Of a DNA stretch of 64,000 bases, positions 2,081 to 47,272 are shown piece after piece. The notes below the pieces were generated by a model. That model had not been told where the DNA came from. It did not search any database and was given only the letters and a program-made list of their open reading frames with translations. Every line of letters begins with the position of its first letter. Position 1 is the first letter of the stretch. A program made the translations under genes and the position numbers. The stretch lies in NCBI RefSeq assembly GCF_009931435.1, contig NZ_CP043414.1; one strand, written 5' to 3'. The DNA is from Escherichia coli. Its GTDB lineage: Bacteria; Pseudomonadota; Gammaproteobacteria; Enterobacterales; Enterobacteriaceae.

Positions 2081-4480
2081 ATGAAGCTAACCGATGCGGA
2101 TAATGCCGCCGATGGCATTTTTTTCCCCGCCCTTGAGCAAAATATGATGGGCGCGGTGTTAATTAACGAAAATGATGAAGTGATGTTTTTCAACCCCGCC
2201 GCAGAGAAGCTCTGGGGATACAAACGTGAAGAAGTCATTGGCAAAAACATTGATATGCTGATTCCGCGGGATTTGCGTCCTGCGCATCCTGAATATATCC
2301 GTCACAACCGTGAAGGCGGTAAAGCGCGCGTCGAGGGGATGAGTCGGGAGCTGCAGCTGGAGAAAAAAGACGGCAGTAAAATCTGGACCCGTTTTGCGCT
2401 ATCGAAAGTGAGCGCCGAGGGTAAAATTTATTACCTGGCGCTGGTACGTGATGCCAGCGTAGAAATGGCGCAAAAAGAACAGACCCGACAATTGATTATT
2501 GCTGTTGACCATCTCGACCGACCGGTGATTGTCCTCGATCCGGAACGCCATATTGTGCAGTGCAATCGCGCATTTACCGAAATGTTTGGTTACTGCATTA
2601 GCGAAGCCAGCGGTATGCAGCCCGATACACTCCTGAACATTCCAGAATTCCCTGCTGATAACCGCATTCGTTTACAACAGTTGCTATGGAAAACCGCCCG
2701 CGATCAGGACGAATTTCTGCTGTTGACGCGCACCGGTGAAAAAATCTGGATCAAAGCCTCTATCAGCCCGGTCTATGATGTGCTCGCACATCTGCAGAAC
2801 CTGGTAATGACTTTCTCGGATATCACCGAAGAACGGCAAATCCGCCAGCTTGAAGGCAATATTCTCGCCGCCATGTGCAGCAGCCCGCCATTTCATGAAA
2901 TGGGGGAAATCATTTGTCGTAACATCGAATCTGTTCTCAACGAATCGCATGTTTCGCTGTTCGCGCTGCGCAACGGGATGCCGATACACTGGGCGTCATC
3001 TTCGCACGGTACAGAAGTTCAAAATGCGCAAAGCTGGTCAGCGACCATTCGTCAGCGTGATGGCGCACCGGCGGGGATCCTGCAAATTAAAACCTCGTCA
3101 GGAGCAGAAACCAGCGCCTTTATCGAACGTGTGGCAGATATCAGCCAGCATATGGCCGCGCTGGCGCTGGAACAGGAAAAAAGCCGTCAGCATATTGAAC
3201 AACTCATCCAATTTGATCCGATGACCGGTCTGCCAAATCGCAATAACCTGCACAATTACCTCGATGACCTGGTCGACAAAGCCGTCTCTCCGGTGGTCTA
3301 TCTCATCGGTGTTGACCATATTCAGGATGTGATTGATAGCCTTGGCTATGCGTGGGCCGATCAGGCATTGCTGGAAGTGGTCAATCGCTTTCGTGAAAAA
3401 CTCAAACCGGATCAGTATCTCTGTCGTATCGAAGGTACGCAGTTTGTCCTCGTGAGCCTGGAAAACGACGTCAGTAACATTACCCAAATCGCCGATGAGC
3501 TACGGAATGTGGTCAGCAAGCCGATAATGATTGACGATAAACCATTCCCGCTCACCTTGAGCATTGGCATCAGCTACGACGTGGGTAAAAACCGCGATTA
3601 CCTGCTCTCCACTGCTCACAATGCAATGGATTTTATTCGCAAAAATGGCGGTAACGGCTGGCAGTTCTTCAGCCCGGTGATGAACGAAATGGTGAAAGAA
3701 CGATTGATATTAGGCGCAGCGCTGAAAGAAGCGATTAGCAATAACCAACTGAAACTGGTTTACCAACCACAAATCTTCGCAGAAACGGGTGAACTGTATG
3801 GTATCGAAGCCCTTGCTCGCTGGCACGATCCTCTGCATGGTCATGTGCCCCCTTCACGGTTTATTCCTCTCGCAGAAGAGATTGGCGAAATCGAAAATAT
3901 TGGGCGCTGGGTCATCGCGGAAGCTTGCCGTCAGTTAGCAGAATGGCGTAGCCAGAATATTCATATTCCAGCGTTATCCGTTAACTTGTCTGCGCTGCAC
4001 TTCCGCAGTAATCAGCTGCCTAATCAGGTGTCTGATGCAATGCAAGTCTGGGGCATTGACGGCCACCAGCTAACGGTGGAAATCACCGAAAGCATGATGA
4101 TGGAACACGATACGGAAATTTTTAAGCGCATCCAGATCCTGCGCGATATGGGCGTGGGTTTATCGGTAGATGATTTTGGCACGGGCTTTTCCGGATTATC
4201 CCGCTTAGTCAGTCTTCCGGTAACGGAAATCAAAATTGACAAAAGTTTTGTTGATCGTTGTCTGACGGAAAAACGCATCCTTGCCTTACTTGAAGCCATT
4301 ACCAGCATTGGGCAAAGCCTCAATTTAACCGTCGTGGCGGAAGGCGTCGAAACCAAAGAGCAATTTGAGATGCTACGTAAGATCCACTGTCGCGTTATTC
4401 AGGGATATTTCTTTTCCCGGCCCCTTCCCGCCGAAGAAATTCCAGGCTGGATGAGCAGCGTGTTACCGCTGAAAATCTGA
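2081..4480 (+). CDS. dosP: c-di-GMP phosphodiesterase DosP (PAS heme sensor + GGDEF-like + EAL)
   Basis: Track ORF 2057-4480; start placed at internal ATG 2081 (MKLTDADNA...) giving 799 aa; EAL region (QPQIFAETGELYGIEALARW) in translation. Confidence 0.92.
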   Translation: MKLTDADNAADGIFFPALEQNMMGAVLINENDEVMFFNPAAEKLWGYKREEVIGKNIDMLIPRDLRPAHPEYIRHNREGGKARVEGMSRELQLEKKDGSKIWTRFALSKVSAEGKIYYLALVRDASVEMAQKEQTRQLIIAVDHLDRPVIVLDPERHIVQCNRAFTEMFGYCISEASGMQPDTLLNIPEFPADNRIRLQQLLWKTARDQDEFLLLTRTGEKIWIKASISPVYDVLAHLQNLVMTFSDITEERQIRQLEGNILAAMCSSPPFHEMGEIICRNIESVLNESHVSLFALRNGMPIHWASSSHGTEVQNAQSWSATIRQRDGAPAGILQIKTSSGAETSAFIERVADISQHMAALALEQEKSRQHIEQLIQFDPMTGLPNRNNLHNYLDDLVDKAVSPVVYLIGVDHIQDVIDSLGYAWADQALLEVVNRFREKLKPDQYLCRIEGTQFVLVSLENDVSNITQIADELRNVVSKPIMIDDKPFPLTLSIGISYDVGKNRDYLLSTAHNAMDFIRKNGGNGWQFFSPVMNEMVKERLILGAALKEAISNNQLKLVYQPQIFAETGELYGIEALARWHDPLHGHVPPSRFIPLAEEIGEIENIGRWVIAEACRQLAEWRSQNIHIPALSVNLSALHFRSNQLPNQVSDAMQVWGIDGHQLTVEITESMMMEHDTEIFKRIQILRDMGVGLSVDDFGTGFSGLSRLVSLPVTEIKIDKSFVDRCLTEKRILALLEAITSIGQSLNLTVVAEGVETKEQFEMLRKIHCRVIQGYFFSRPLPAEEIPGWMSSVLPLKI

Positions 4481-8800: not shown

Positions 8801-9783
8801 CCCAACCCGTTCTGGACATTCAACAGCTGCATTTGAGTTTCTCCGGTTTTAACGGCGACGTTCACGCGCTCAACAATGTGTCATTGAAAATCAACCGCGG
8901 TGAAATTGTCGGTCTGGTGGGAGAATCCGGCTCGGGTAAATCAGTCACTGCAATGTTGATTATGCGTCTGTTACCGACGGGCAGTTATTGCGTACATCGG
9001 GGACATATTTCACTGCTGGGAGAAGATGCTCTTAACGCTCGGGAAAAACAGCTTCGTCAGTGGCGCGGCGCACGAGTGGCGATGATCTTTCAGGAACCGA
9101 TGACCGCCCTAAATCCGACACGTCGAATAGGTCTTCAGATGATGGACGTGATCCGCCATCATCAACCAATAAGTCGTCGGGAAGCCAGAGCTAAAGCGAT
9201 TGCCCTGCTGGAAGAGATGCAAATCCCGGATGCCGTGGAAGTTATGTCGCGCTATCCGTTTGAGCTTTCAGGTGGTATGCGCCAGCGGGTAATGATTGCG
9301 CTGGCATTCTCCTGCGAGCCGCAATTGATTATTGCCGACGAACCGACTACGGCGCTGGACGTCACGGTACAGTTGCAGGTACTGCGTCTGCTTAAACATA
9401 AAGCCCGCGCCAGTGGAACTGCGGTACTGTTCATCAGCCATGATATGGCCGTGGTGTCGCAACTGTGCGATAGCGTTTACGTGATGTATGCCGGAAGCGT
9501 GATCGAGAGCGGTATGACGGCAGACGTTATCCATCATCCCCGGCATCCGTATACCATTGGTTTGCTGCAATGCGCACCGGAACATGGAATACCACGCCAG
9601 CCATTACCCGCCATTCCAGGGACGGTACCAAACCTCACCCATTTGCCTGATGGCTGCGCTTTTCGCGATCGTTGCTATGCGGCAGGTACACAGTGTGAAA
9701 ACGTCCCGGCGCTGACAGCGTGTGGTGACAACAACCACCGCTGCGCCTGTTGGTATCCTCAGCAGGAGGTCATTAGTGTCTGA
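8797..9783 (+). CDS. ddpD: D,D-dipeptide ABC transporter ATP-binding protein
   Basis: 328 aa; Walker A GESGSGKS and signature LSGGMRQR. Confidence 0.9.
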   Translation: MTQPVLDIQQLHLSFSGFNGDVHALNNVSLKINRGEIVGLVGESGSGKSVTAMLIMRLLPTGSYCVHRGHISLLGEDALNAREKQLRQWRGARVAMIFQEPMTALNPTRRIGLQMMDVIRHHQPISRREARAKAIALLEEMQIPDAVEVMSRYPFELSGGMRQRVMIALAFSCEPQLIIADEPTTALDVTVQLQVLRLLKHKARASGTAVLFISHDMAVVSQLCDSVYVMYAGSVIESGMTADVIHHPRHPYTIGLLQCAPEHGIPRQPLPAIPGTVPNLTHLPDGCAFRDRCYAAGTQCENVPALTACGDNNHRCACWYPQQEVISV

Positions 9784-10702
9784 CACGTTATTAACGTTAC
9801 GCGACGTCCATATCAATTTCCCGGCCCGAAAAAACTGGCTTGGTAAAACTACGGAACATGTTCATGCCATCAATGGTATTGATTTACAGATCCGTCGTGG
9901 TGAAACCTTAGGGATCGTCGGTGAGTCAGGCTGCGGCAAAAGCACCCTCGCACAGCTTTTAATGGGTATGCTGCAACCGAGCCACGGGCAGTACATCCGT
10001 TCAGGATCACAACGCATTATGCAGATGGTGTTTCAGGACCCGCTCTCTTCGCTTAATCCGCGCTTACCGGTGTGGCGCATCATCACGGAACCGCTCTGGA
10101 TTGCTAAGCGTAGTAGTGAACAACAGCGGCGAGCGTTGGCAGAGGAGCTGTCTGTGCAGGTGGGTATTCGTCCGGAGTATCTCGACCGCTTGCTTCATGC
10201 GTTCTCAGGCGGGCAGCGGCAACGTATCGCCATTGCCAGAGCACTCTCTTCGCAGCCTGACCTGATTGTGCTTGATGAACCCACCTCGGCGCTGGATATC
10301 TCCGTGCAGGCGCAGATCCTCAATTTACTGGTAACGCTACAGGAAAATCGCGAGCTGACTTATGTGCTGATTTCACACAATGTCTCGGTGATACGTCATA
10401 TGAGCGATCGGGTGGCGGTGATGTATCTCGGACAGATTGTGGAACTAGGAGACGCGCAACAGGTGCTGACAGCTCCGGCACATCCATACACCCGATTATT
10501 GCTGGATTCCCTCCCCGCCATTGATAAACCGCTGGAGGAAGAATGGGCATTGCGTAAAACGGATCTACCAGGAAACCGCACGTTGCCACAAGGCTGTTTT
10601 TTCCGTGAACGTTGCCCTCTGGCAACCCACGGATGTGAAGTCCGGCAATCATTAACAATAAGGGAGGACGGACGTGAGATCCGGTGCTGGCGGGCGCTGT
10701 AG
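9776..10702 (+). CDS. ddpF: D,D-dipeptide ABC transporter ATP-binding protein
   Basis: Track ORF 9722-10702; GTG start at 9776 (V/MSDTLLTLRDV) gives 308 aa; Walker A GESGCGKS, signature FSGGQRQR; overlaps ddpD by 8 nt. Confidence 0.85.
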   Translation: MSDTLLTLRDVHINFPARKNWLGKTTEHVHAINGIDLQIRRGETLGIVGESGCGKSTLAQLLMGMLQPSHGQYIRSGSQRIMQMVFQDPLSSLNPRLPVWRIITEPLWIAKRSSEQQRRALAEELSVQVGIRPEYLDRLLHAFSGGQRQRIAIARALSSQPDLIVLDEPTSALDISVQAQILNLLVTLQENRELTYVLISHNVSVIRHMSDRVAVMYLGQIVELGDAQQVLTAPAHPYTRLLLDSLPAIDKPLEEEWALRKTDLPGNRTLPQGCFFRERCPLATHGCEVRQSLTIREDGREIRCWRAL

Positions 10703-10712
10703 AGACGCTAAC

Positions 10713-10755
10713 AACGCATCAGGCAATCACGCGCCTGACGCGTCATCCGGCAACG
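10713..10755. repeat. REP-like palindromic element between convergent ddpF and osmC
   Basis: gcgcctgacgcgtcatccggca resembles REP consensus (GCCGGATG...). Confidence 0.35.
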
Positions 10756-10757
10756 CT

Positions 10758-11189
10758 TTACGATTTCAACTGGTAATCAAGCGTAATTTCAGCTTTCAGT
10801 ACCTGAGAAACCGGGCATCCTGCTTTTGCTTTCTGGATAATGCCGTCAAAAGTAGAGGCATCAATACCCGGCACCGCAACTTCGCTCTTCAGTGCGATTT
10901 TAGTAATCGCAAACCCGGCATCCACTTTATCCAGCGACACATCGGCGGTGGTATCAATCGATGTGGGCGTGAATCCTGCTTCCCCCAGCATTAATGAAAG
11001 CGCCATTGAGAAACATGCTGCATGCGCCGCGCCAATTAGTTCTTCAGGGTTAGTTCCTTTTTCGCCTTCAAAACGCGTATTAAATCCATACGGCTGTTGG
11101 TTCAGTACGCCGCTCTCGGTGGAAACGGTTCCCTTCCCGCGTTTGATATCGCCTTCCCAGTGTGCCTGACCTTTCTTATGGATTGTCAT
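10758..11189 (-). CDS. osmC: Osmotically inducible peroxiredoxin OsmC
   Basis: 143 aa ORF MTIHKKGQAHWEGDIKRGKG... Confidence 0.92.
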   Translation of the reverse strand: MTIHKKGQAHWEGDIKRGKGTVSTESGVLNQQPYGFNTRFEGEKGTNPEELIGAAHAACFSMALSLMLGEAGFTPTSIDTTADVSLDKVDAGFAITKIALKSEVAVPGIDASTFDGIIQKAKAGCPVSQVLKAEITLDYQLKS

Positions 11190-11532
11190 TGTTGCTCTCC
11201 TGTGGGCTTAAAAAGGAAATTATAGACTACGTGAGAAACAGCATGAGGATAAGCGGGATATTCCGAATAGAATCCGGCGAAAATATTATCTATGTACTTA
11301 AATAAAATTTCCACAATAGATAACCGGGAATATATAACTCAAGAGATATTGCATCAATATCAATCAACTCACACCAATAATATTCCCATTAATATCATGG
11401 AGTTAAAATATAAAAATCATCAACCAGGACTAATCTTAACAACGAAGCGGCAAATATTTGCCATGCTGAATGTGCTTTATAAATCTGCGATCCGTAGCAG
11501 ACACCATAAATACACAGACACGGAGAATCACT

Positions 11533-11748
11533 ATGTTTACTTATTATCAGGCAGAAAATTCAACAGCAGAACCCGCTCTGGTTAATGCCATTGAGCAAGG
11601 CCTTCGGGCAGAACACGGTGTTGTCACTGAAGATGACATTCTCATGGAGCTGACCAAATGGGTGGAAGCTTCTGATAACGACATCCTCAATGATATCTAC
11701 CAGCAAACGATCAATTATGTGGTCAGTGGCCAGCACCCTACGCTTTAA
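11533..11748 (+). CDS. bdm: Biofilm-dependent modulation protein
   Basis: Track ORF 11470-11748; internal ATG 11533 (MFTYYQAENSTAEPALV...) gives 71 aa. Confidence 0.8.
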   Translation: MFTYYQAENSTAEPALVNAIEQGLRAEHGVVTEDDILMELTKWVEASDNDILNDIYQQTINYVVSGQHPTL

Positions 11749-11849
11749 GGTGCTATGCTTGATCGGCAACCTAATTTAGGGGTTTAGCACGTGTTTCTTC
11801 GCTACGGCGATGTTGTCCTTAAAACTAGCAACAGGATTGAGGAGTTAAA

Positions 11850-11987
11850 ATGAAATCGAACCGTCAGGCACGTCATATTCTTGGACTGGACCATAAAATT
11901 TCTAACCAGCGCAAAATAGTTACCGAAGGTGACAAATCCAGCGTGGTAAATAACCCAACCGGCAGAAAACGCCCCGCTGAAAAGTAA
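11850..11987 (+). CDS. sra: Stationary-phase ribosome-associated protein Sra (RpsV)
   Basis: 45-codon ORF (below track cutoff) hand-translated [45 protein letters not shown]; SD ggag upstream. Confidence 0.8.
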
Positions 11988-12143
11988 TTCATAACCATCA
12001 GTCCTCAATGACGATTAAACACCATTGCCTGCGCAATGGTGTTTTTGTTTTTAACTGCTTTATACTTGGAGCCGACGCCCTGGCGGTAAAGCAAAGACGA
12101 TAAAAGCACCCCAGGGATGGATATTCAAAAAAGAGTGAGTGAC

Positions 12144-13841
12144 ATGGAACCAAAAACAAAAAAACAGCGTTCGCTTTATATTCCTTACGCTGGCCCTGTA
12201 CTGTTGGAATTTCCGTTGTTGAATAAAGGCAGTGCCTTCAGCATGGAAGAACGCCGTAACTTCAACCTGCTGGGGTTACTGCCGGAAGTGGTCGAAACCA
12301 TCGAAGAACAAGCGGAACGCGCATGGATCCAGTATCAGGGATTCAAAACCGAAATCGACAAACACATCTACCTGCGTAACATCCAGGACACCAACGAAAC
12401 CCTCTTCTACCGTCTGGTAAACAATCATCTTGATGAGATGATGCCTGTTATTTATACCCCAACCGTCGGCGCAGCCTGTGAGCGTTTTTCTGAGATCTAC
12501 CGCCGTTCACGCGGCGTGTTTATCTCTTACCAGAACCGCCACAATATGGACGATATTCTGCAAAACGTGCCGAACCATAATATTAAAGTGATTGTGGTGA
12601 CTGACGGCGAACGTATTCTGGGGCTTGGTGACCAGGGCATCGGCGGGATGGGCATTCCGATCGGTAAACTGTCGCTCTATACCGCTTGTGGCGGCATCAG
12701 CCCGGCGTATACCCTTCCGGTGGTGCTGGATGTCGGGACGAATAACCAACAGCTGCTTAACGATCCGCTGTATATGGGCTGGCGTAATCCACGTATTACT
12801 GACGACGAATACTATGAATTCGTTGATGAATTTATCCAGGCTGTGAAACAACGCTGGCCGGACGTGCTGTTGCAGTTTGAAGACTTCGCACAAAAAAATG
12901 CGATGCCGTTACTTAACCGCTATCGCAATGAAATTTGTTCTTTTAACGATGACATTCAGGGCACCGCGGCGGTAACGGTAGGCACGCTGATCGCAGCAAG
13001 TCGCGCGGCAGGTGGTCAGTTAAGCGAGAAAAAGATTGTCTTCCTCGGCGCAGGTTCAGCGGGATGCGGCATTGCCGAAATGATCATTGCCCAGACTCAG
13101 CGTGAAGGATTAAGCGAGGAAACGGCGCGGCAGAAAGTCTTTATGGTCGATCGCTTTGGTCTGCTCACCGACAAGATGCCGAATCTGCTGCCTTTCCAGA
13201 CTAAACTGGTGCAGAAGCGCGAAAATCTCAGTGACTGGGATACTGACAGCGATGTGCTGTCACTGCTTGATGTGGTGCGCAATGTCAAACCGGATATTCT
13301 GATTGGCGTCTCAGGACAGACCGGGCTGTTTACGGAAGAGATCATCCGTGAGATGCACAAACACTGTCCGCGTCCGATCGTGATGCCGCTGTCTAACCCG
13401 ACTTCACGTGTGGAAGCCACACCGCAGGACATTATCGCCTGGACCGAAGGTAACGCGCTGGTCGCCACCGGCAGTCCGTTTAATCCGGTGGTATGGAAAG
13501 ATAAAATCTACCCCATCGCCCAGTGTAACAACGCCTTCATTTTCCCTGGCATCGGGCTGGGTGTTATTGCTTCCGGCGCGTCACGTATCACCGATGAGAT
13601 GCTGATGTCGGCAAGTGAAACGCTTGCTCAATATTCGCCGCTGGTCCTGAACGGCGAAGGTCTGGTACTGCCGGAACTGAAAGATATTCAGAAAGTCTCC
13701 CGCGCAATTGCGTTTGCGGTTGGCAAAATGGCGCAGCAGCAAGGCGTGGCGGTGAAAACCTCCGCCGAAGCTCTGCAACAGGCCATTGATGATAACTTCT
13801 GGCAAGCCGAATACCGCGACTACCGCCGTACATCCATCTAA
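12144..13841 (+). CDS. maeA: NAD-dependent malic enzyme
   Basis: Track ORF 12117-13841; start at ATG 12144 ([18 protein letters not shown]...) gives 565 aa. Confidence 0.93.
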
Positions 13842-37270: not shown

Positions 37271-37993
37271 TTACAATTTGTAGCATGACGGATATAGGAC
37301 AACATTAGGAAATCGGACAGAAAATTCATTATAATAAAATGACAACTTATCTCTTTCTCTCACGTTCTGTGAAATTTCACAAAAGTATAAACTGAGCCAA
37401 TATGCCTTTATATATAAAAAATACTCATGTTTATTATTATCGGAAAAAGCCAAGATTTGATTAAGGCCATCAAAAATATCTTTCTCATGATCTATATGTA
37501 CTCTTGATGATTTTACAATATCTTTTAATTCGCGGTAAATCTTATTAAATAGCGCAACCGATTCACTGTTATTGAATCCATAGTTGATAAAAAGACATGA
37601 TTTAACATCCGATATTAGCAAGTCGTCATAATTCATCTCTATTTCAGACAATTTCACGATATACTCAGCTATAGTATTACTTTGTAAGGACTCAACAACT
37701 GACAGTAAAACAGATGGATGCAATAATATTTCAAGAAGACTTTTATCGATATTTTTATACACATTTATTGCAAATTCATCATTCGTCCCATCGATGGTGT
37801 CAGATATTGAAAAAAATACATAATCGGGGAGTTCATACCACATATTAATTTTAATAATATCACGACACATATCTTCTAATTGTTGTAATCTATTACCTTT
37901 ATTCATAACAACCTTAATATTATATGGAATCTTTGGCGGAATCTTCTTAACTCTGAGGAATTTTACTAAACCTTTGTTAGAGAAAATATGCAT
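37271..37993 (-). CDS. Hypothetical protein, AT-rich orphan ORF (no recognisable domain)
   Basis: 240 aa ORF, very low GC, no signal peptide or motif recognised; directly downstream of ISAs1 remnant. Confidence 0.45.
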   Translation of the reverse strand: MHIFSNKGLVKFLRVKKIPPKIPYNIKVVMNKGNRLQQLEDMCRDIIKINMWYELPDYVFFSISDTIDGTNDEFAINVYKNIDKSLLEILLHPSVLLSVVESLQSNTIAEYIVKLSEIEMNYDDLLISDVKSCLFINYGFNNSESVALFNKIYRELKDIVKSSRVHIDHEKDIFDGLNQILAFSDNNKHEYFLYIKAYWLSLYFCEISQNVRERDKLSFYYNEFSVRFPNVVLYPSCYKL

Positions 37994-38069: not shown

Positions 38070-39280
38070 TTCATGATAGTTAAGGGGAGTGCTAACTTAA
38101 TATAAACACCCAGGGCAAGATTACGAAAGCCCGCTCCCCGCAAGGACTGACGCCAGATACTTTCTGTCCATGGTTGCTTTTCGCATCTTACGTCTTAACC
38201 CTGCTTGAATACCTCATCATTCGTCAAAATATTAATAGCGATGTGCCGTATCCCTGAAAATAATTCTGCTGCATTTCCTCTTCTTATTTTGCAGTCGTCT
38301 TCATTCATTACCACGTCCAGACGCCAGTGCAGCTTATTCTCCACGTGCCAGTGGTTTCGGATTGCTGTGGCGAACTTCTCTGCGGTTAAATCAGCAGAAC
38401 TGATATAATATCTGACCGTCATTTCTGGCTCTTTCTTTTGTTCTGCTATTATTGACCGAAAGGAGACTGCCACGCATAATTTCTTCAGACCTTTCCATTC
38501 AAACGTGAAATCAATAAGTTCATCAGGGACATCGCAAACAATGTGAAGACGGATTTCTTCTCTGCCGTGACTCTTTTCACTAATTGCGTAACTGTCATGC
38601 TCTGGATTATTTAATTCTTTCAGCGGAAATTTTTCCTCGAAGCCTTTATTTAGCCGCCCCTGGTTTCCTTTTACAGCGAATAAATAATCACCTCCCTGTT
38701 TTTGTATCTTCTCTGCAATATCTTTCTGGCAACCCATCGCATCAGTTGTGATGATTTTTCCTTTAATATCCAGCATGTTAAGAAGTTCTGGGATAGCTGT
38801 AATCTCATTGGATTTCTCATCCGTCTTGATCTGTCCGATGACCAGACTGTGCATTGTTGAGAACGCACTAATGACATGAATCGCTCCCCTGCGGCGACTC
38901 TTGTCATAAGAGTGCCGGAGCGTTTTTCCATCAATTGCAATGACGTCTTTATCATCTGAAGAATGGCAGTCACGCATCCAGTTAATAAAGCACTCATGAA
39001 ATTTTGCAGGACTGATACAGGATACAACTTTGGCAATGATATCGTGAACAGGAATACCATTTTCAAAATCACCATATCACTTCAAAAAATCGAGATGTGT
39101 TTCCCAAAAATTCGCTATATTTTCCTATCCTTCTGCACCAAAAATAACGGCACAAATAGCCAACAGTAGAATATCCGATAATTTATGCTCCACTTTCCAG
39201 GCTTGTCTGTAATCGGGGATAACAGAAATATGTTCCATCAATTTTTTAAGTACCATTTTGTTCTCCTTAATTATGTAAGG
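38070..39280 (-). mobile_element. ISAs1-family (H-repeat) insertion sequence, boundaries approximate
   Basis: Transposase-homologous sequence flanked by imperfect inverted repeats (about 38073-38087 atgatagttaagggg vs 39263-39277 ctccttaattatgta). Confidence 0.5.
38195..39238 (-). pseudogene. ISAs1-family transposase (H-repeat-associated protein) inactivated by two in-frame nonsense codons
   Basis: Hand translation from ATG 39238: [37 protein letters not shown]-stop-ENIANFWETHLDFLK-stop-YGDFENG..., continuing in frame into track ORF 38195-38977 ([11 protein letters not shown]...). Confidence 0.8.
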
Positions 39281-39562
39281 AGTATTTGATCATGTATAAG
39301 CAATAAAAAACAGCTTCAGGTAATGAGGAATATCTCAATTTTTAAACATAAAATGCGAATTGTTTAGTACAAAAAGTGTACTTCTGATGATCTTTCCCTG
39401 CCTATCAGCCCCCCTGCTGAACCCTGCACAATATCCAGTCCCTTGCGGGTCATGTCACCCTGCCGCGCCGCCGGTTTTCCGCTCATGGTTTATTCCTTTT
39501 CTTTTACCTTACATGTCCATACAAATAGTTACCTATACTGTCTTTGAATATTGCCCTACCAT

Positions 39563-40012
39563 TTAAAGCCCACCTATTTCTTGCGACAGAAAAGGGATTT
39601 CTTTTTTAATCCAATCTATCATTTCATTTTTTTCAAAACATACGTTAATGCCATTCACACTGCCACATTCACCAAAACCATCAAAATAAATTTCACATTT
39701 ATTATTTTTATTCGAAACAATGTCAACCCCCCATCTTATATCGTTATTCTCCTCCTTCCTGAAATACTTCATTTGCAATAAATCAATTATCTCACCAGCA
39801 TAAAAATCGCTAACCCCATTCACCACCACTTTATGTTTGTATATTCTCTTGAGACCTTCCTTGCTAAGCGGGGTTAAGGTGGTAACATATGCTGGAAGAT
39901 TAATTATTTCTATCGTTTTCACACTATCTATTCCACACAATTCATTCACTCGCCCCATCCCCAATACCGAAGCAGAAAATAGAGACAATAAAACCATCAA
40001 ATATTTCATCAT
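39563..40012 (-). CDS. Candidate Rhs immunity protein with N-terminal signal peptide
   Basis: 149 aa; starts 12 nt after Rhs stop; hydrophobic N-terminus MMKYLMVLLSLFSASVLG; AT-rich. Confidence 0.5.
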   Translation of the reverse strand: MMKYLMVLLSLFSASVLGMGRVNELCGIDSVKTIEIINLPAYVTTLTPLSKEGLKRIYKHKVVVNGVSDFYAGEIIDLLQMKYFRKEENNDIRWGVDIVSNKNNKCEIYFDGFGECGSVNGINVCFEKNEMIDWIKKEIPFLSQEIGGL

Positions 40013-40024
40013 AAAAAAATCTCA

Positions 40025-43000
40025 CTATTCTGGCGTGCCATTTATTGTTGCCGTCTGCGTTGGTGTATTCACACGATAATACACTCCATTATATGCTGTT
40101 CTGGTACACTCACCTAAAGTTTTCGCCGCATGCTGTTCAATTAAAGTGATAACTCTCGCCTCTTCTTTATTTTTATATTGTTCATCCGCACGTCTCACAA
40201 GCCCCATATAACCATCCTTATCAATAAGATATAAGTGCGCATGAGCAAACTCATGCCCCAAACCTAATGCAGGTGATTGTGATTTCGATTTTAAATCAGT
40301 TGAACAAAATAAAGCCGCCTTACCATTCCAATATATAGTCATTTTATCCGGGTCAAATCTAACGTCGGTTTCATCAATATACTCTATCTTTATGGTTTCT
40401 TCAGAGCTTGATAAAAAATCTATAGCTTCTTTCATTCGTGAATCTTGTTTTAAATACTCAACAGCCTGATTAAAATCACTTGGATCACCGTTAACATGGA
40501 ATTTTAAACCCAAAGAATCTATAAACCGAACAGGGTTTAATGGATATTTATACAGATTCCATTCACCTCTTAGCCCGATTGGATCCTGGGTGATATACCT
40601 CCCCTGTAGCGGGTCATAGTACCGGTTCCGGTTATAATACAGCCCCGACTCCTCATCGTGTTGCTGCCCTGGCAGACGGTACGGCTGGTGCATGTGATGC
40701 GAGTTTTCCTCATTCAGCAGGTTTCCCCACTCATCATACTCCCCGCTCCACGCCGTATTGCCGTCTTCGCTGATGAGCGCCAGCGGCAGGCCCCGGTGGT
40801 CGCAGTGATACAGATGCAGCGTGCGTGCCGGTGTGTATTCCGGCTCCACCTGTCTGGCCAGTTGCTCCACCGTCAGCCCGCACTGCGCAAGCCACGCCCG
40901 GCTTTCACTGCTCACGCGGTCTGCCCGGATTTCTTCCTCCAGCCTGTCCAGCATCCTCACAAGTTCTGCCGGGAACACCACACCGTGCCCGTCCTCACTC
41001 CCTTCCTGCTGCAGCTTCTCCGCCAGGCTCCGGCGCTGCGCTTTCTCCCGCTCGCCGTTCTCTGTTTCGATGCGGATGAGCGGCGTGAAGCTCCCAGGCT
41101 GGTAGACCGTCTGGATACGTGTGGTGTCGGTCTGTACCGTCGTCAGCCGGTCACCGTCCCACCCGTACCACGTTACCTCCGGTTTACGCGACAGCGACAT
41201 CCACCCCGTCAGGTCACGCTCCCGCCGCCATACCCGTTTCGCCATTCGCCGTCCCAGCGGGTCGTAGAGGTAGCGGCTCTCGACCAGTGGCTCGCCATGC
41301 TGTATCCGCGTGTAGAACACCAGGCGTGCTGGCTGTCGTAGTGGTAGTGGTGGGTCCGCTCGTCGTCCGTCCGTATCACACCCGCCGGGATGCGGTCCGT
41401 CTTCTCCGTCAGCCTGCCGTATTCATCGTGGCGGTAGACATAGTGCGCATCCTCCGCGATGCGGTTATCCGGCCACACTGTGAGTGTACTGTCCGGGTGC
41501 AGCTCCGGGTCCGGCAGCCGGTTGCCCGCCGGGTCCGTGGCATACGGGATGCGGATGTCCAGGTCCGGTGCGAGGGTGCGCACGCTCTCCAGCCTGCCCG
41601 TGGCACTGTAGCCGTATTCCCGCGTCTGTCGCGGGCCGCTGATGCGCACCAGGTCGCCGTTGTCATTCCACCCGTAGTCACGGTCATACACCAGGCTGTT
41701 CAGGTGCTGACTCTGTAACTGACCTGCGGGGGTGTATGTGCTGGTCAGTTCGTATGCGGAATTACTGCCTGCCATGCTGCCGAAGCTGCGCACCGTCTCA
41801 CGGTGCAGCCTGTCCCGCGTATACTCGACCAGCGGCGTCCCGCCCAGCTTCATTCCCGCCAGGTAACCGCTGCCATACGTCAGCCACTCCACCGGCGGCA
41901 GGCTGTCCGGCGTGACGCGGTTTGCCAGCCCCTGTTCGTTGTATGCCTGTTTCGTCTCATGCTGCCAGAGCAGTTCCTCCGTCTCCGGGTTATGCACCGT
42001 CTGGCGCTCGCCAGTCAGACGGCCCTTGTCGTCATAGCCATAGTGGACGGCAACACGGTGGCCTTCGCTCAGGTGGCTGATTTCTCTCAGCCAGCCGTGG
42101 CCATCATACTGCCACTGCTCTGCCGGTTCGCCGTTCACCGTGCGGTGCGTGATGCGGTCCGATTCGTCGTAGTGCCAGAGGGTGACAAGCCCCTCATCTT
42201 CACTCTGCGTGAGTTTTCCGGTCAGGTCATAGTGGTAACGTTGCGTCCGCCCGTCAAAGCCGCGCTGCTGTACCAGCCGGTCCAGCGCATCGTAGGTAAA
42301 CTCACTTCGGCTGCCGTTCTCGTTAGTCAGCGTGGTGACACGTCCGGCAGCATCATACTCCATACTGCGCGTCAGCCCGCCCTGCGTGGTACTGACCGCC
42401 TTTCCCCACGCATCGTACTGTGTCTCACTCCGGTTGCCATCCGGGGTGATGACGGCGGTCAGGTCGCCTGCGGCGTTGTACTCATACTGCGTTTCACGGC
42501 CCTGTGCGTCTTTCACCGAGGTTAACCGGCCACGGTTGTCATAGCGGCGGTAAAGGCTGATACCTTCCTCGCGGTGAACCGCCGTCATCTGGCCGAAGCG
42601 GTCGTATTCATAGCGGGTCTGGTAGCCCGAGCAGTCGGTGAAGGCCAGCAACTGCCCGTAGCGGCTCCAGGTCATCTGCCGGGTGCTGCCCGTCGCATCC
42701 GTTGTCGTCGCCGGTAACTCACTGTGCGGATTATCATAAGCATACCGGATGACGTCCCCGCTGCGCGATGTCTCCGTTACCAGCCTGTCCCGCTCATCAT
42801 ACGCCCGGCGGCTCTCCAGCCCGTCCGGGGACACCACCGCCGTTAACTGGTTCCCGTCGTTATAGTAAAATTTCGTCTCCCGCCCGTCCGGCGTGGTGAT
42901 ATCCGTGATATCGCCGGACACCACATTCAGGCCGTACTCTGTCCGCCGTCCCGCCGCGTCCGTCTGTGCCGTGAGCCTTCCTGCCGCGTCATACCCGCTG

Positions 43001-44277
43001 TGCGTGACGCTGCCGTCCGCCAGTTCTTTTTTCACCACCCGCTTCAGCCCGGCCCCGCCTTCTGTATGCAGCACCTCTCGCCGGTTCAGGCTGTCCGTGA
43101 TGGTGATGCGGTCCTGCTCATAAAGATAGCGATAGCTTAACCCTGCCGGGTTCAGCTGCTCCACCACCCGCCCGGTATCGTCGTAGCGGTAGCGCATCTC
43201 CGGCCTTCCCGCATAACGGTGCCCCACCATCCGGCCCGGGTGCTGCGCGTCATACGTGAAAGCGCGCACCTGCGTATTGCTGCGGTCATATACCGCCAGC
43301 AGTTCACCGGCTTCCGTATACGTGTAACGCGCCAGTGGCGCACCGGGCAGATTCTCCGGGTATGCCGGGTCGTGCATCAGCCACACCGCCGAAAGACGGA
43401 TGCCCCTGTCGGGGCCGTATTCCGTACCGGGCAGTGTGTCGGGGAACGCTGAGGCTGAGAGAGGGCGGGAACGGTCAGAAGAAGATAGCGAAGAGGTGCG
43501 GGCCTCTTCCGCACGCTGCGCCTGCGTGGTCAGCACCAGACGGAACTTCCGCCCGGCACCGTCCGTCACGCTGGTGATTTCCCCAGCCAGGTCACCGGCG
43601 GCCTCACGCCGGTACGTCAGCGTCCGCCCGAAGCGGTCCGCCAGCCCGGTAAGCACCCGGTACGGCGGCAGCGGCGCTGGCAGTACGTCCTCAGCACCCG
43701 GCACCCGCTCACTCCACCCCAGTATCCACCACGACCCCTGTGCGCTGTTGGTCGCCAGGTAAAGATGCGGGCTTAACCGGATATCCGGCGGCAGCGCCCC
43801 CCACAGTCGCGCCAGCGTGTGGCCGTCCGGCTGCGCTGCCTTACCACCGCGCACCAGCCACATTGACTCGCTGCGGCTGTACACCGCCTCCCCCGGCAGC
43901 AGCGGCTCAAAGTGAATGCTCCGCCCGCCGTTGTCGTTGAGTATCAGTGCGTCATCACGTAGCTGTAAGCGGATATCCGAAGGCGCTTTCCAGCCGGGGC
44001 CGAAAACGCCCACCGGGGCAGGCGTCCTCGTCCGGTAGCTGCTGTAGGTGCGGGAGAGAATGAACGGCAGCGGGCCGGGCAGCGCAAGGTCCGTCTCGCC
44101 GGGCAGCACCTTCGCCCCCAGCAGCGGATTTACCGGGTTGCCCGAAGTCATCCCGCCCGGACACACCGAGCACGCCACGCCGGTGGGCGCGCCAATTCTT
44201 ACACCTGCCGAACCCTGGACAATGGGACCGCCATACTGAGTCATATCTCCCTGACGCGCTGCTGGTTTTCCGCTCAT
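40025..44277 (-). CDS. Rhs-family polymorphic toxin (PAAR-like N-terminus, YD-repeat shell, variable C-terminal tip), interrupted by an apparent -1 frameshift near 41325
   Basis: Track ORFs 41209-44277 (1022 aa) and 40025-41320 (431 aa) overlap in different frames; YD repeats throughout; DPIGL core-end motif; C-terminal tip contains HEFAH. Confidence 0.85.
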
Positions 44278-44343: not shown

Positions 44344-46452
44344 TCAGTACTCTCTCATATCCGGCGTATCCTGCTTTTCATCAGGGGTCTTCGGTGGGGA
44401 TTTCGAGGCTGCACAGTTCCAGTTAATCAACAGTGAGTCACCATTAACCTGCTCCTTACCCTGCAAATGAATTTTTGTGCCGTTGAGAAAAATTTGTCCG
44501 TCCTTAGTCAGCACCAGCCTTGCCTTACCACAGCAGAGTTCCAGATGCTCACCGGCGGAGTAAATCGCGGTCTGCCCGGTATCATCCTTTTTCGTTTTAC
44601 CAACGGTGAAGGTAACGTTATTTCCGACTTTGACGTCATAACCCAGCCCGACCATCAACGATTTATGCAAACCGATCTGCGAGGACTGCATCAGGGCCAC
44701 CGAGGTGTTCATAATGCCACCTACCGTCGTCTGATACGCCACGCCCACAGTCAGCGCACGAACAAGTCCAATCGTTTCCACCTGAACAGAGCCCACTTTA
44801 ATGATCTGGTTACTGCCCACCGTCTCTATCTGGTTAACGCCCACCGTCTGTATCTGATTGTTGGTAACCGCAATCACCTGATTGTTGCCGATGGTCTCAG
44901 CATGGTTGTTTATCACATCCGTGGTGCGGTTATTCAGCACCTCGGTGTTCATGTTCTTCTGCGCGTGGATGTAGACCTGTTCTTTCCCTGTCGCATCGTC
45001 AAACTTCAGTTCATTAAACCCGCTGCCCTTATAGGTTTTCGAACGAATGGTCATCTGCGTCTTTGTTCCCGGCAGGCTGCCGGGGGTGCGGTTTTCCTGG
45101 TGGTAGGTACGCCCCATAATAATCGGCTGGTCCGGATCGCCGTTGAGGAAGTCCACAATGACCTCCTGACCCACACGCGGTATCGCCAGGTTACCAAACC
45201 CGGTGCCTGCCCACGCCTGTGCCACACGGATCCAGCATGAACTGTCCTGGTTTGACGGGTTATAACGGTCCCAGTTAAATTTCACCCGCACGCGGCCATG
45301 TTCATCACAGAAGATTTCTTCTCCTGCCGGTCCCGTCACGACGGCGCTCTGCGGGCCATCCACCAGCGGTTTCAGCAACGGCTGTGGCCGCCATGTTCTG
45401 TCTGCCGGTATTACCGCAAAGTGGTTATTCAGCGTGGTACCTGAACCCCTGCGTCCCGGCACCGCCTGCGGCTGCTCGCCGTGCAGTTCACTTGCCACCA
45501 CCTGCCATTCCCGGTTCAGGTTCGCCTGCGGATGCCCCGTCAGCGCAATTCGCCGTCCCGGCCATATCTCCGGAGAACGGCTTGTTCCGCGCGCCACTTC
45601 TGCGTTGTTTCGCCAGCCATCCATCTGCCAGCGGGCAAAGTTCTGCCCGTGGGCACCCTTGAAACGTCCGGGGTAGTCATACACTTCATACTGTGTGCGC
45701 TGGTAATCCTGGTACTGGCCTTCCTGATCAAAACGCCCTGCCCAGCCGGGTCGTTTAAAGGTGTAGTCCTTGGTCACCACGGAAGAAGGGCGGATTTGTG
45801 CGCTGTAGCGGAACTGGCTGATGCATAGGGTGCTCACCTCGGTACGGGTGTTCGGATTCCAGGGGATCTCAAAGGACTCCGGCAGATAACGCACGGTGTC
45901 GCACAGGACCAGGCTCTGGTCGGTACTTTTTTGCGCGTGCTCCTCATAAAAGAAGATGCCTTCCTCCGCCGCCATCCGGCACAGGAAATCGTAATCGGTT
46001 TCGCCGTACTGGACACAAAACTCACGGGAAGGATGCGGCTCGCTGAACAGCGGACTCCACTCGGTCACCCCGTTTTCTTTCAGGATCGTCGCGAGTATGC
46101 TTTCGATGTCCTCATTCTGGAAGATACGGAAGTTCTGGCGCAGCCCTGTGCGCCACAGCGGTGGGCACACCTTCATGCTGTACAGCATCTGGTTTTTGTC
46201 GTTCTCCCCCAGTTCAAACCAGGTCACCACACCTTTTACCCGGCGCTGTACGTCATCGCCCTGCCATACCGTCAGGTAGGCCATTTTGTCGAGGATCTGC
46301 GGAAATTCAAGGGAAAGAAACTGCTGACTGACCAGAGAAAGGTCGAGGGAAAAAAGTGAAGAGAGTGACTGGGTGAGATGAAAGGAAACCACCGCAAACG
46401 CGTCCGGTGGCAGGCCGTCCACTTCCAGCGTGAAACGTAATCCGGTTGACAT
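44344..46452 (-). CDS. vgrG: VgrG-type T6SS spike protein
   Basis: Track ORF 44344-46488; start at ATG 46452 (MSTGLRFTLEVDGLPPDAF...); gp27/gp5-like; Val-Gly repeats (VGVNQIETVGSNQIIKVGSVQVETIG). Confidence 0.9.
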   Translation of the reverse strand: MSTGLRFTLEVDGLPPDAFAVVSFHLTQSLSSLFSLDLSLVSQQFLSLEFPQILDKMAYLTVWQGDDVQRRVKGVVTWFELGENDKNQMLYSMKVCPPLWRTGLRQNFRIFQNEDIESILATILKENGVTEWSPLFSEPHPSREFCVQYGETDYDFLCRMAAEEGIFFYEEHAQKSTDQSLVLCDTVRYLPESFEIPWNPNTRTEVSTLCISQFRYSAQIRPSSVVTKDYTFKRPGWAGRFDQEGQYQDYQRTQYEVYDYPGRFKGAHGQNFARWQMDGWRNNAEVARGTSRSPEIWPGRRIALTGHPQANLNREWQVVASELHGEQPQAVPGRRGSGTTLNNHFAVIPADRTWRPQPLLKPLVDGPQSAVVTGPAGEEIFCDEHGRVRVKFNWDRYNPSNQDSSCWIRVAQAWAGTGFGNLAIPRVGQEVIVDFLNGDPDQPIIMGRTYHQENRTPGSLPGTKTQMTIRSKTYKGSGFNELKFDDATGKEQVYIHAQKNMNTEVLNNRTTDVINNHAETIGNNQVIAVTNNQIQTVGVNQIETVGSNQIIKVGSVQVETIGLVRALTVGVAYQTTVGGIMNTSVALMQSSQIGLHKSLMVGLGYDVKVGNNVTFTVGKTKKDDTGQTAIYSAGEHLELCCGKARLVLTKDGQIFLNGTKIHLQGKEQVNGDSLLINWNCAASKSPPKTPDEKQDTPDMREY

Positions 46453-47272
46453 AGCAACCTCCGTGAAAATGAATAATAATCCGCACATATTGCATGTACA
46501 ACATGTCGGACGGATGAGATAAGCGAGTCGACATCTGGCGTTACCGGGGAATATCAGAAAAATGTCATGGTTATGTGATGATTTAGTCTGGGATTTTACT
46601 TCAGAGAAACGGGTGTCTGTTTAGTCAACAAAATAATCACAAACGCAACGGATGGGTTCTCGACGTTATTCACGACAGGCTCGTACATTACAGCGAGTAA
46701 TAAAAAACCTGATATGCAAAGTCAAACCAATATTCATAATGTCTTTTTATTCACAAAAATAAATAATTCAATAACAATCATTGAAATGAATGATGGTTTG
46801 TATAAGGAATATACGCTACCGCCCCACCCTGATAACATGATCTGCACATTGCCATCTTAACGTCGTTAAACACTGGCTTAATAGTGGATATTTCAAATTA
46901 GGAATTTATTAAATTCACCTGATGAATATCATAAGCAAATAGCATAGAAAATAATGACAACTCCCCCGAGGGGACCATTTCCAAAGCACTGCAACACCAC
47001 CTGGTGCCCGGATGATCTTGCTTCAGTGGTAAGAGTACCTGATTCATTGTTCCCAAAATGGTGTTTTCCCCTGCCCCTCCAATAACGTGCAGCTCTCACG
47101 TGATAATCTATTGATTAGGTTATATTAAGAATCAATATTTGAAATACATCCATTTTCTTGAATAAATCAACATATTTATTTATCAATTGCTGTTTTAGCT
47201 CTGACTCATCAAACTCTCCATATTTTTCCTACAGAAAATCGCGAATAAATACAGAGAACGCCATTTATCCTT

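Follow-up and report, generated by a model that had tools for sequence, protein, structure and literature searches.

The Tox-HopH1 domain was defined on polymorphic toxins in 2012, with HExxH and [DE]N as its signature, and was listed together with RHS repeats and delivery through a type VI secretion system (T6SS), without an immunity family (Zhang et al., PMC3482391). In E. coli, a 2024 preprint described an 'Rhs-Peptidase M91' whose gene belongs to a vgrG island and is interrupted by a premature stop codon; its downstream protein was left unmatched, and according to the authors no such effector had been characterized (bioRxiv 10.1101/2024.03.05.583533). Tpe2 from Pseudomonas aeruginosa is a predicted M91 effector of the T6SS with the same botulinum-like features (PMC9846239), and the PAAR-RHS-M91 protein of Salmonella Dublin (SED_RS06335) is followed by a transmembrane protein of 110 amino acids (PMC8867033). 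Here, a locus of this class is analyzed that lies in a stretch of 64,000 nucleotides, called the window below, from an E. coli chromosome (assembly GCF_009931435.1, contig NZ_CP043414.1). It consists of a vgrG gene, an Rhs gene with a C-terminal toxin tip and a small gene, dsORF-h1, and all of its features are on the minus strand. The locus probably specifies a vgrG-linked Rhs toxin of the T6SS type, of which the tip is an M91 zinc endopeptidase directed at a protein of the cell envelope, together with an immunity protein that is exported. As a class, such toxins are already known and have been catalogued bioinformatically; the present one is a rediscovery, and its module is very common in E. 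coli. For the conserved exported immunity family and the site of action that it implies, no earlier description was found.

Besides the Tox-HopH1 Rhs toxins, other zinc peptidases are close enough for comparison. NleD from enteropathogenic and enterohemorrhagic E. coli and HopH1 from Pseudomonas syringae are the M91 members of MEROPS with which the tip shares a HExxH motif followed, in register, by an EEAR-type glutamate helix, and the set of tip homologs, taken as a whole, falls into their Pfam family. Unlike the tip, NleD is a stand-alone protein of 232 amino acids that is secreted by the type III secretion system (T3SS), cleaves host JNK and p38, and has neither an Rhs carrier nor an immunity gene. 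Another group is that of VgrG2b-PA0261 and Tpe1-Tpi1, which resemble the present pair in outline: a T6SS gluzincin is combined with an immunity protein that has a signal peptide, a lipobox or a transmembrane anchor (PMC6899460; SARI_02727/02726, PMC12992299). They belong to a different zincin family, DUF4157, and no homology of the tip to the C-terminal domain of VgrG2b was found. It has been stated that VgrG2b contains an M91 domain (PMC8867033); this assignment is rejected here, the domain being DUF4157 (PMC6899460) and structurally distant.

The toxin tip and its family assignment

The C-terminal part of the Rhs core is encoded in an open reading frame (ORF) of 431 amino acids (41320..40025, stop codon 40027..40025). 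It includes the Rhs-associated core domain (40505..41320; NF041261 positions 990-1261, 594 bits; TIGR03696, E-value 2e-24). As both Rhs models, NF041261 and TIGR03696 (Rhs_assc_core), stop at residue 272 of this ORF, the tip comprises exactly 159 amino acids (40504..40028), in agreement with a preliminary description of this DNA, made from the letters alone, which had given it about 160 residues between the same positions. Directly upstream lies a demarcation motif of the PxxxxDPxGL type with S in place of P (40505..40534), at the position where homologs have DPLGL or, more generally, DPxGL. The motif type had been named correctly in the preliminary description, but the first of the two copies distinguished there is the conserved motif of the Rhs-associated core, and it is the second copy, with S for P, that forms the true boundary. 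From what is known of Rhs proteins, the motif just before the tip is expected to be the site of autoproteolytic release.

Based on profiles, conservation and a structural model, the tip (40028..40504) is assigned to the Peptidase_M91/Tox-HopH1 (NleD/HopH1) family as a divergent member, a zinc metallopeptidase domain with a minimal core like that of the botulinum light chain. Among 43 diverse homologs of the tip, the Pfam model PF14891 (Peptidase_M91) was matched by 29 at E-values of at most 1e-3 and by 42 at E-values of at most 0.1, with 2.8e-9 as the best value. The tip of the window shares 53-73% identity with its variants in E. coli and Shigella, 43-45% with homologs from Hafnia alvei and 33-43% with many metagenomic proteins. 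PF14891 is present in the Hafnia homologs, for which NCBI uses the name M91 family zinc metallopeptidase. With its E. coli, Shigella and Hafnia members at 43-73% identity, the window tip represents a divergent subfamily within the Tox-HopH1 Rhs toxins. A profile search for relatives among 1.84 billion representatives retrieved 2430 clusters at E-values of at most 1e-3, of which 1341 were at or below 1e-10. Among the matched proteins, 167 were examined; the M91 domain forms the C-terminal end in 87% of them, and a DPxGL-type motif lies just 5′ of the domain in 35 of the 103 proteins with enough upstream sequence. A C-terminal domain preceded by such a motif is the layout of a polymorphic-toxin tip. 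The window gene shares it with the Tox-HopH1 Rhs toxins, which likewise have a C-terminal HExxH domain after the Rhs core and a DPxGL-type demarcation and are linked to vgrG. The zincin-like metallopeptidase that had been proposed for the tip is thus borne out at the level of the family, and the remainder of the domain, which the preliminary description could not recognize, belongs to the known Tox-HopH1/M91 class (PMC3482391; bioRxiv 10.1101/2024.03.05.583533).

Two results count against this assignment. Searched alone, the tip has an E-value of 0.056-0.08 to PF14891, which is below significance, and its membership of M91 would accordingly be a matter of transitive homology and fold. NleD from E. 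coli O157 Sakai, compared by hhalign with the profile of the tip family, gave a weak E-value of 0.17 and is taken as supporting evidence only, with the alignment in register at HELLH/HEFAH and at LEEARTV/KEEARVI. Among further searches with the tip, the end of the Rhs core was all that was matched in NCBIfam, and PADLOC returned no match. Sequence searches of the PDB with the tip and with two family profiles gave no meaningful match, so that no solved member of the family was found by sequence.

The HEFAH motif is located at 40241..40255, exactly where it had been placed before, in a ten-residue block (40264..40235) within a predicted helix of residues 78-94. It would provide two zinc ligands, H84 and H88, and the catalytic glutamate E85. 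On its own the HExxH pattern is not significant, because it occurs three times by chance in the six-frame translation of the window. This chance frequency, and the fact that most characterized Rhs tips are nucleases, are what favor the view that the motif is incidental and the tip a nuclease, a deaminase or another non-protease toxin. The data already contradict that view, which is highly improbable. HExxH is kept in all 43 diverse homologs and in 141 of the 142 best database matches. Besides H84, E85 and H88, the residues W59, L82, E114, E123 and R135 are invariant in the 43 homologs, and E115, R117, V118, I119, E132 and position 138 are conserved in at least 90%. Moreover, every strong structural match of the tip is a zincin protease, and in Pfam, NCBIfam and PDB searches the tip matched no nuclease or deaminase family, the kind of match that had been set beforehand as the refutation of a peptidase.

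The acidic residue that had been anticipated downstream of HExxH corresponds to the invariant E114, in the stretch with KNKEE (tip residues 104-115). The family consensus at this place is Y-D-N-x-E-E-x-R-V-I, and Y-[DE]-N-x-E-E is the block found 3′ of HExxH in Tox-HopH1 Rhs toxins; the YKNKEE of the tip retains the N and has K at the place of D/E. Further predicted active-site residues lie at 40091..40165, namely E114/E115, one of which is the putative third zinc ligand, and E123, E132 and R135-x-x-Y138, on or after a predicted helix of residues 113-129. Position 138 is H in most homologs (RxxH) and Y in the window tip (R135-T-A-Y138, i.e., RxxY). M91 peptidases and the clostridial light chains of family M27 have in common HExxH, a glutamate as third ligand, a second glutamate and RxxY (Mansfield et al., 2019, PMC6367388). 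As judged from spacing and conservation rather than from superposition, E114/E115, E123 and RxxY of the tip may match E261/E262, E350 and RxxY of botulinum neurotoxin.

The structure prediction that had been suggested for the tip was obtained with AlphaFold. From a shallow first alignment, the model had a predicted local distance difference test score (pLDDT) of 73.8, and its Foldseek matches were insignificant, all of them zincins. The alignment of 43 sequences gave a confident model (pLDDT 95.8, predicted template modeling score 0.91), for which botulinum light chains, followed by GtgA and NleC, were far ahead of all other structural matches; the effector domain of VgrG2b reached 4.6 only. 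The modeled fold is that of a zincin, closest to the core of the botulinum light chain. There are clear differences from the botulinum and tetanus light chains (MEROPS M27), which have about 430 amino acids compared to about 160 in the tip and contain two SNARE-binding insertions that are absent from M91 peptidases (Mansfield et al., PMC6367388). The tip also lacks the translocation and receptor domains of botulinum toxin, so that delivery differs and the targets presumably do as well.

Stand-alone relatives of the tip were found in a scan of genome contigs with a narrow pattern. About 50 of the 66 loci (within L011-L071) are from metagenome-assembled genomes (MAGs) of Candidatus Eremiobacterota (WPS-2). 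The M91-like proteins encoded there are small and have the same conserved block, without an Rhs carrier or an exported neighbor. Their genes sit in housekeeping contexts, and the proteins are probably not toxins. With these stand-alone proteins making up most of the scan, only about eight of its loci are informative on immunity.

The exported partner and the site of action

The candidate immunity gene dsORF-h1 (39563..40012) begins 12 nucleotides past the stop codon of the Rhs gene and encodes a protein of 149 amino acids with four cysteines. A stretch resembling a Sec signal peptide is formed by residues 1-18 (40012..39959). The N-terminus reads MMKYLMVLLSLFSASVLG, followed after the predicted cleavage point by MG, with a lysine at position 3 and V and G at positions -3 and -1, and residues 4-17 reach 2.16 in mean Kyte-Doolittle hydropathy, compared to at most 1.18 for any 12-mer elsewhere in the protein. 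Leader and cysteines are kept in the variants of E. coli and Shigella (74-97% identity). The secreted partner that had been predicted for the tip is hence present, as an ORF with a signal-like leader that is moreover a conserved partner of M91 tips. No family was found for the protein in Pfam, NCBIfam or PADLOC, and of the 37 clusters retrieved with its profile none has an informative name or a Pfam domain. Relatives with 85% identity are named 'RHS element protein dsORF-h1' in UniRef. We take this to be the Hill laboratory's name for the ORF downstream of the RhsH element, which is in tandem with RhsE. One metagenomic protein, P0042 (117 amino acids), resembles the E. coli dsORF-h1 in its C-terminal half and has an unrelated N-terminal half without leader; this chimera suggests recombination within immunity genes.

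Exported partners are also encoded next to M91 tips of other lineages, which are in part known from MAGs and are named here as assigned. In Hafnia alvei, the Rhs core and M91 tip are followed by an ORF of 154 amino acids with a clear signal peptide (MKLFLILIFFVSSQSYA, with K after the cleavage point), which is 33% identical to dsORF-h1 (E-value 3e-23). All but one of the toxin-fused loci from the genome scan have a downstream ORF of 130-195 amino acids with a strongly hydrophobic N-terminus. Homology of these ORFs was assessed by pairwise BLAST within this small set. The downstream ORF from Omnitrophica (L017) has E-values of 8e-9 to dsORF-h1 and 5e-16 to the Hafnia protein, and for the exported homologs from Acidobacteriaceae (L034/L076) the value to dsORF-h1 is 2e-7, with 2e-12 to the Hafnia protein for L034. 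For Bacillota (L072) the E-value to dsORF-h1 is 0.002, and a metagenomic ORF (L007) is tied to the family via L072 (8e-9). In hhalign, the shallow alignment of the E. coli immunity proteins did not detect the downstream protein of L007, which is linked through the intermediates L072 and L017 only. The motifs IEI..LP.YILT, DxRWG and YFD..G..G.VNG are common to the downstream ORFs. Moreover, a further protein of the dsORF-h1 family is encoded downstream of a metagenomic Rhs protein of 1840 amino acids with an M91 tip (E-value 4.5e-52). In two further toxin-fused loci, L073 and L074, the downstream ORFs are exported and have no detectable homology to dsORF-h1. By homology, with related ORFs next to M91 tips in five other lineages, dsORF-h1 is a member of an unnamed family of proteins with a signal peptide or membrane anchor that are partners of M91 tips, and such a conserved exported partner distinguishes the tip from the Tox-HopH1 Rhs toxins as described so far.

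Immunity proteins must meet the toxin where the toxin acts, so that an exported partner family argues for action in the periplasm or envelope. Because the partner in the window is exported, and its homologous counterparts in other phyla are likewise exported or have a membrane anchor, a protein exposed there is the most likely substrate of the toxin, and the sequences of these partners argue for toxin-fused M91 tips that are antibacterial and act outside the cytoplasm. The preliminary description had called a peptidase toxin with a secreted immunity protein an uncommon pair; a characterized precedent exists in another zincin family, with VgrG2b-PA0261 and Tpe1-Tpi1, the effectors of which are toxic only in the periplasm (PMC6899460). 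The compartment argument does not discriminate between substrates, and many T6SS effectors that act in the periplasm and have exported immunity proteins are cell-wall hydrolases (PMC6899460). It is nevertheless improbable that the tip is a cell-wall peptidase acting on peptidoglycan or its peptide stems. The tip matched no M15, M23 or LAS-type cell-wall peptidase and no cell-wall family of Pfam, and its best structural matches, the botulinum light chains and then GtgA and NleC, are protein endopeptidases. The analogous domain of VgrG2b showed no peptidoglycan hydrolase activity either (PMC6899460).

Other observations weigh against an antibacterial toxin with an exported immunity protein. Hydropathy and the -3/-1 pattern are the only criteria by which the leader of dsORF-h1 was recognized. 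Among the toxin-fused loci, L066 has no exported downstream ORF, and at L005, where an Rhs-M91 gene is borne by a plasmid or an integrative and conjugative element, no immunity ORF was recognizable. Furthermore, the only characterized M91 enzymes, NleD and HopH1, are T3SS effectors that work in the eukaryotic cytosol (PMC3482391, PMC6367388), and Tox-HopH1 was classed as anti-eukaryotic in a Salmonella survey (2026; PMC12994826). Together with the treatment of Tpe2 as a putative virulence factor in P. aeruginosa (PMC9846239), this speaks for a tip that, like NleD and HopH1, cleaves host signaling proteins, e.g., mitogen-activated protein kinases, after T6SS delivery, with a downstream ORF that does not confer immunity. 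Such an anti-eukaryotic effector is unlikely in view of the homologous small exported protein directly 3′ of M91 tips in unrelated phyla, metagenomic MAGs included, which is a signature of self-protection, and of the AT-rich cassette structure that the tip-immunity module shares with interbacterial Rhs toxins.

From the anatomy of the genes, the family and fold assignment, the conserved residues and the conserved exported partner, all observed or computed, we infer the following course of events for intact alleles of the antibacterial toxin. The PAAR-like N-terminus would seat the Rhs shell, which encloses the tip of 159 residues, on VgrG. Self-cleavage after DSLGL would release the tip, and the T6SS would carry it into a neighboring Gram-negative cell. 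There, zinc would be bound by H84, H88 and either E114 or E115, with E85 activating the water molecule and E123 and R135-x-x-Y138 shaping the active site, and the tip would cleave a protein that is accessible in the periplasm or envelope of the cell. By binding the protease in the periplasm, dsORF-h1 would shield the producer.

The frameshift in the Rhs gene

The N-terminal part of the Rhs gene is an ORF of 1022 amino acids (41209..44277) that ends prematurely after a frameshift. It matches NF041261 (RHS_core) over positions 1-988 with 2129 bits, the cut-off of this model being 2000 bits, and the PAAR-like assignment rests on the fact that the match starts at profile position 1. The two Rhs ORFs cover contiguous parts of the RHS_core model, positions 1-988 and 990-1261. 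When the window was compared by MAFFT and BLAST with the gene of 4254 nucleotides for an intact ortholog of 1417 amino acids (NZ_CP151026), a single gap was found, near 41327. It is a deletion of one nucleotide at 41325..41329, where the window reads CAGCA-CGCC and the intact ortholog CAGCACCGCC. The continuous Rhs shell of the preliminary description is therefore split in two frames, and there is no uninterrupted reading frame from the N-terminus to the tip. This, too, counts against a working toxin: the gene being frameshifted, nothing follows on activity in the organism of the window.

The frameshift parts the PAAR and Rhs N-terminus from the tip. As the deletion uncouples them, the toxin is probably not deliverable in the window; delivery would be likely only if the missing base were a sequence error. 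Whether it reflects a real pseudogene or such an error is something that one sequence cannot tell. The intact immunity gene could still protect against kin with an intact toxin.

With a probability slightly better than even, the feature in the window is a decaying relic, with a toxin that is neither made nor delivered at any time and the immunity gene as the sole functional part, if there is one; this is compatible with an antibacterial M91 toxin in the case of intact alleles. Besides the split frame, the locus contains the remnant of a second Rhs gene, cut to 35 codons, and a disrupted ISAs1 transposase next to it, both of which fit decay of the locus. The E. coli (STEC) Rhs-M91 gene of the 2024 preprint is comparable as well, as it is in a vgrG island and is split, there by a premature stop (bioRxiv 10.1101/2024.03.05.583533). 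At L078 (3896-5480), the M91 tip is degraded with a broken frame and the exported immunity homolog is intact, which is a second example of immunity outliving the toxin. On the other hand, the deletion lies in a run of two bases, where a sequencing or assembly error is possible from one sequence, and the coding sequences of tip and immunity protein are undamaged, their proteins being identical to those of the intact allele.

Genomic context and distribution of the module

According to the ORF list and the profile matches, the window represents the rhsE/rhsH site of a chromosome of the E. coli type, with the gene order ansP, a GST-like gene, vgrG, the Rhs gene, the ORF of 149 amino acids, remnants, yddH, nhoA, yddE and narVW. 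The vgrG gene for the T6SS spike protein (44344..46488, 714 amino acids; TIGR03361, VI_Rhs_Vgr, 628 bits, E-value 8.5e-189) is intact and located immediately 5′ of the Rhs gene. Located at the rhsE site, with ansP on one side and yddH/nhoA on the other, the element is presumably the one that was named RhsH in the past; it shares with RhsH/dsORF-h1 this place in the chromosome, where it is in tandem with the RhsE position near ydcC, yddH and nhoA. The work of the Hill laboratory on RhsH in the 1990s reportedly dealt with structure and distribution only, without a toxin family or an immunity function. The guanine plus cytosine (G+C) content of the Rhs core is 63%, whereas the tip has 37% and the immunity ORF 34%, the classical profile of a GC-rich core with an AT-rich extension.

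E. coli 19KM1831 (NZ_CP151026) has the same order of vgrG, rhs and immunity gene as the window, with an intact Rhs gene, and its tip and 149-amino acid protein are both 100% identical to those of the window. A second Rhs gene comes next. In this strain, vgrG (2249-4356) and the second Rhs gene (9215-13391) are annotated as frameshifted, and the parts that are lost from the vgrG-Rhs island differ between strains. The second Rhs gene of the window, at the RhsE position, is a 5′ remnant of 35 codons (39380..39486), identified by translation, that starts at the place equivalent to the start in 19KM1831; the rest of this gene, including its tip and immunity module, is deleted. Further downstream is a disrupted ISAs1-family transposase (H-repeat, ydcC-like; 38195-39255), of which an ORF of 260 amino acids matches profile positions 66-314 only and a short N-terminal piece upstream of that ORF ends in a stop codon. 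Between this remnant and yddH, an ORF of 240 amino acids (37271-37993) has a G+C content of 29%. Searches of Pfam, NCBIfam and PADLOC gave no match for this ORF, which may be a cassette gene of the Rhs region that has been orphaned.

Among 5426 complete E. coli genomes, 1017 contain the tip and the downstream ORF at a coverage of at least 80%, and the best identities of the whole locus to complete E. coli genomes are 92-96%. A contig of 1670 nucleotides from a MAG labeled 'Collinsella sp.' (JAIJJM010000683.1) carries an E. coli-type Rhs end, a tip with 73% identity and a dsORF-h1 homolog, and is probably enterobacterial contamination of an actinobacterial bin.

In general, M91 effectors have been presumed to have eukaryotic targets in recent surveys, and none has been shown experimentally to be antibacterial. 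We lean, by a narrow degree, toward toxin-fused domains of the M91 and botulinum light-chain type being a widespread class of antibacterial proteases, which attack an envelope protein outside the cytoplasm and are neutralized by an exported or anchored dsORF-h1-like family across Proteobacteria, Omnitrophica, Acidobacteria and Bacillota. If true, this would contradict the filing of Tox-HopH1 effectors of the T6SS as anti-eukaryotic, and the protease lineage of NleD and the botulinum neurotoxins would gain a branch with bacterial targets. For annotation, a name and a likely role are now available for dsORF-h1 and its unnamed relatives. The same tip-immunity module is present in about one fifth of the complete E. 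coli genomes. If the reading is confirmed, there would be a new envelope target for interbacterial killing, and a catalytic core shared with the botulinum toxins would serve in bacterial warfare.

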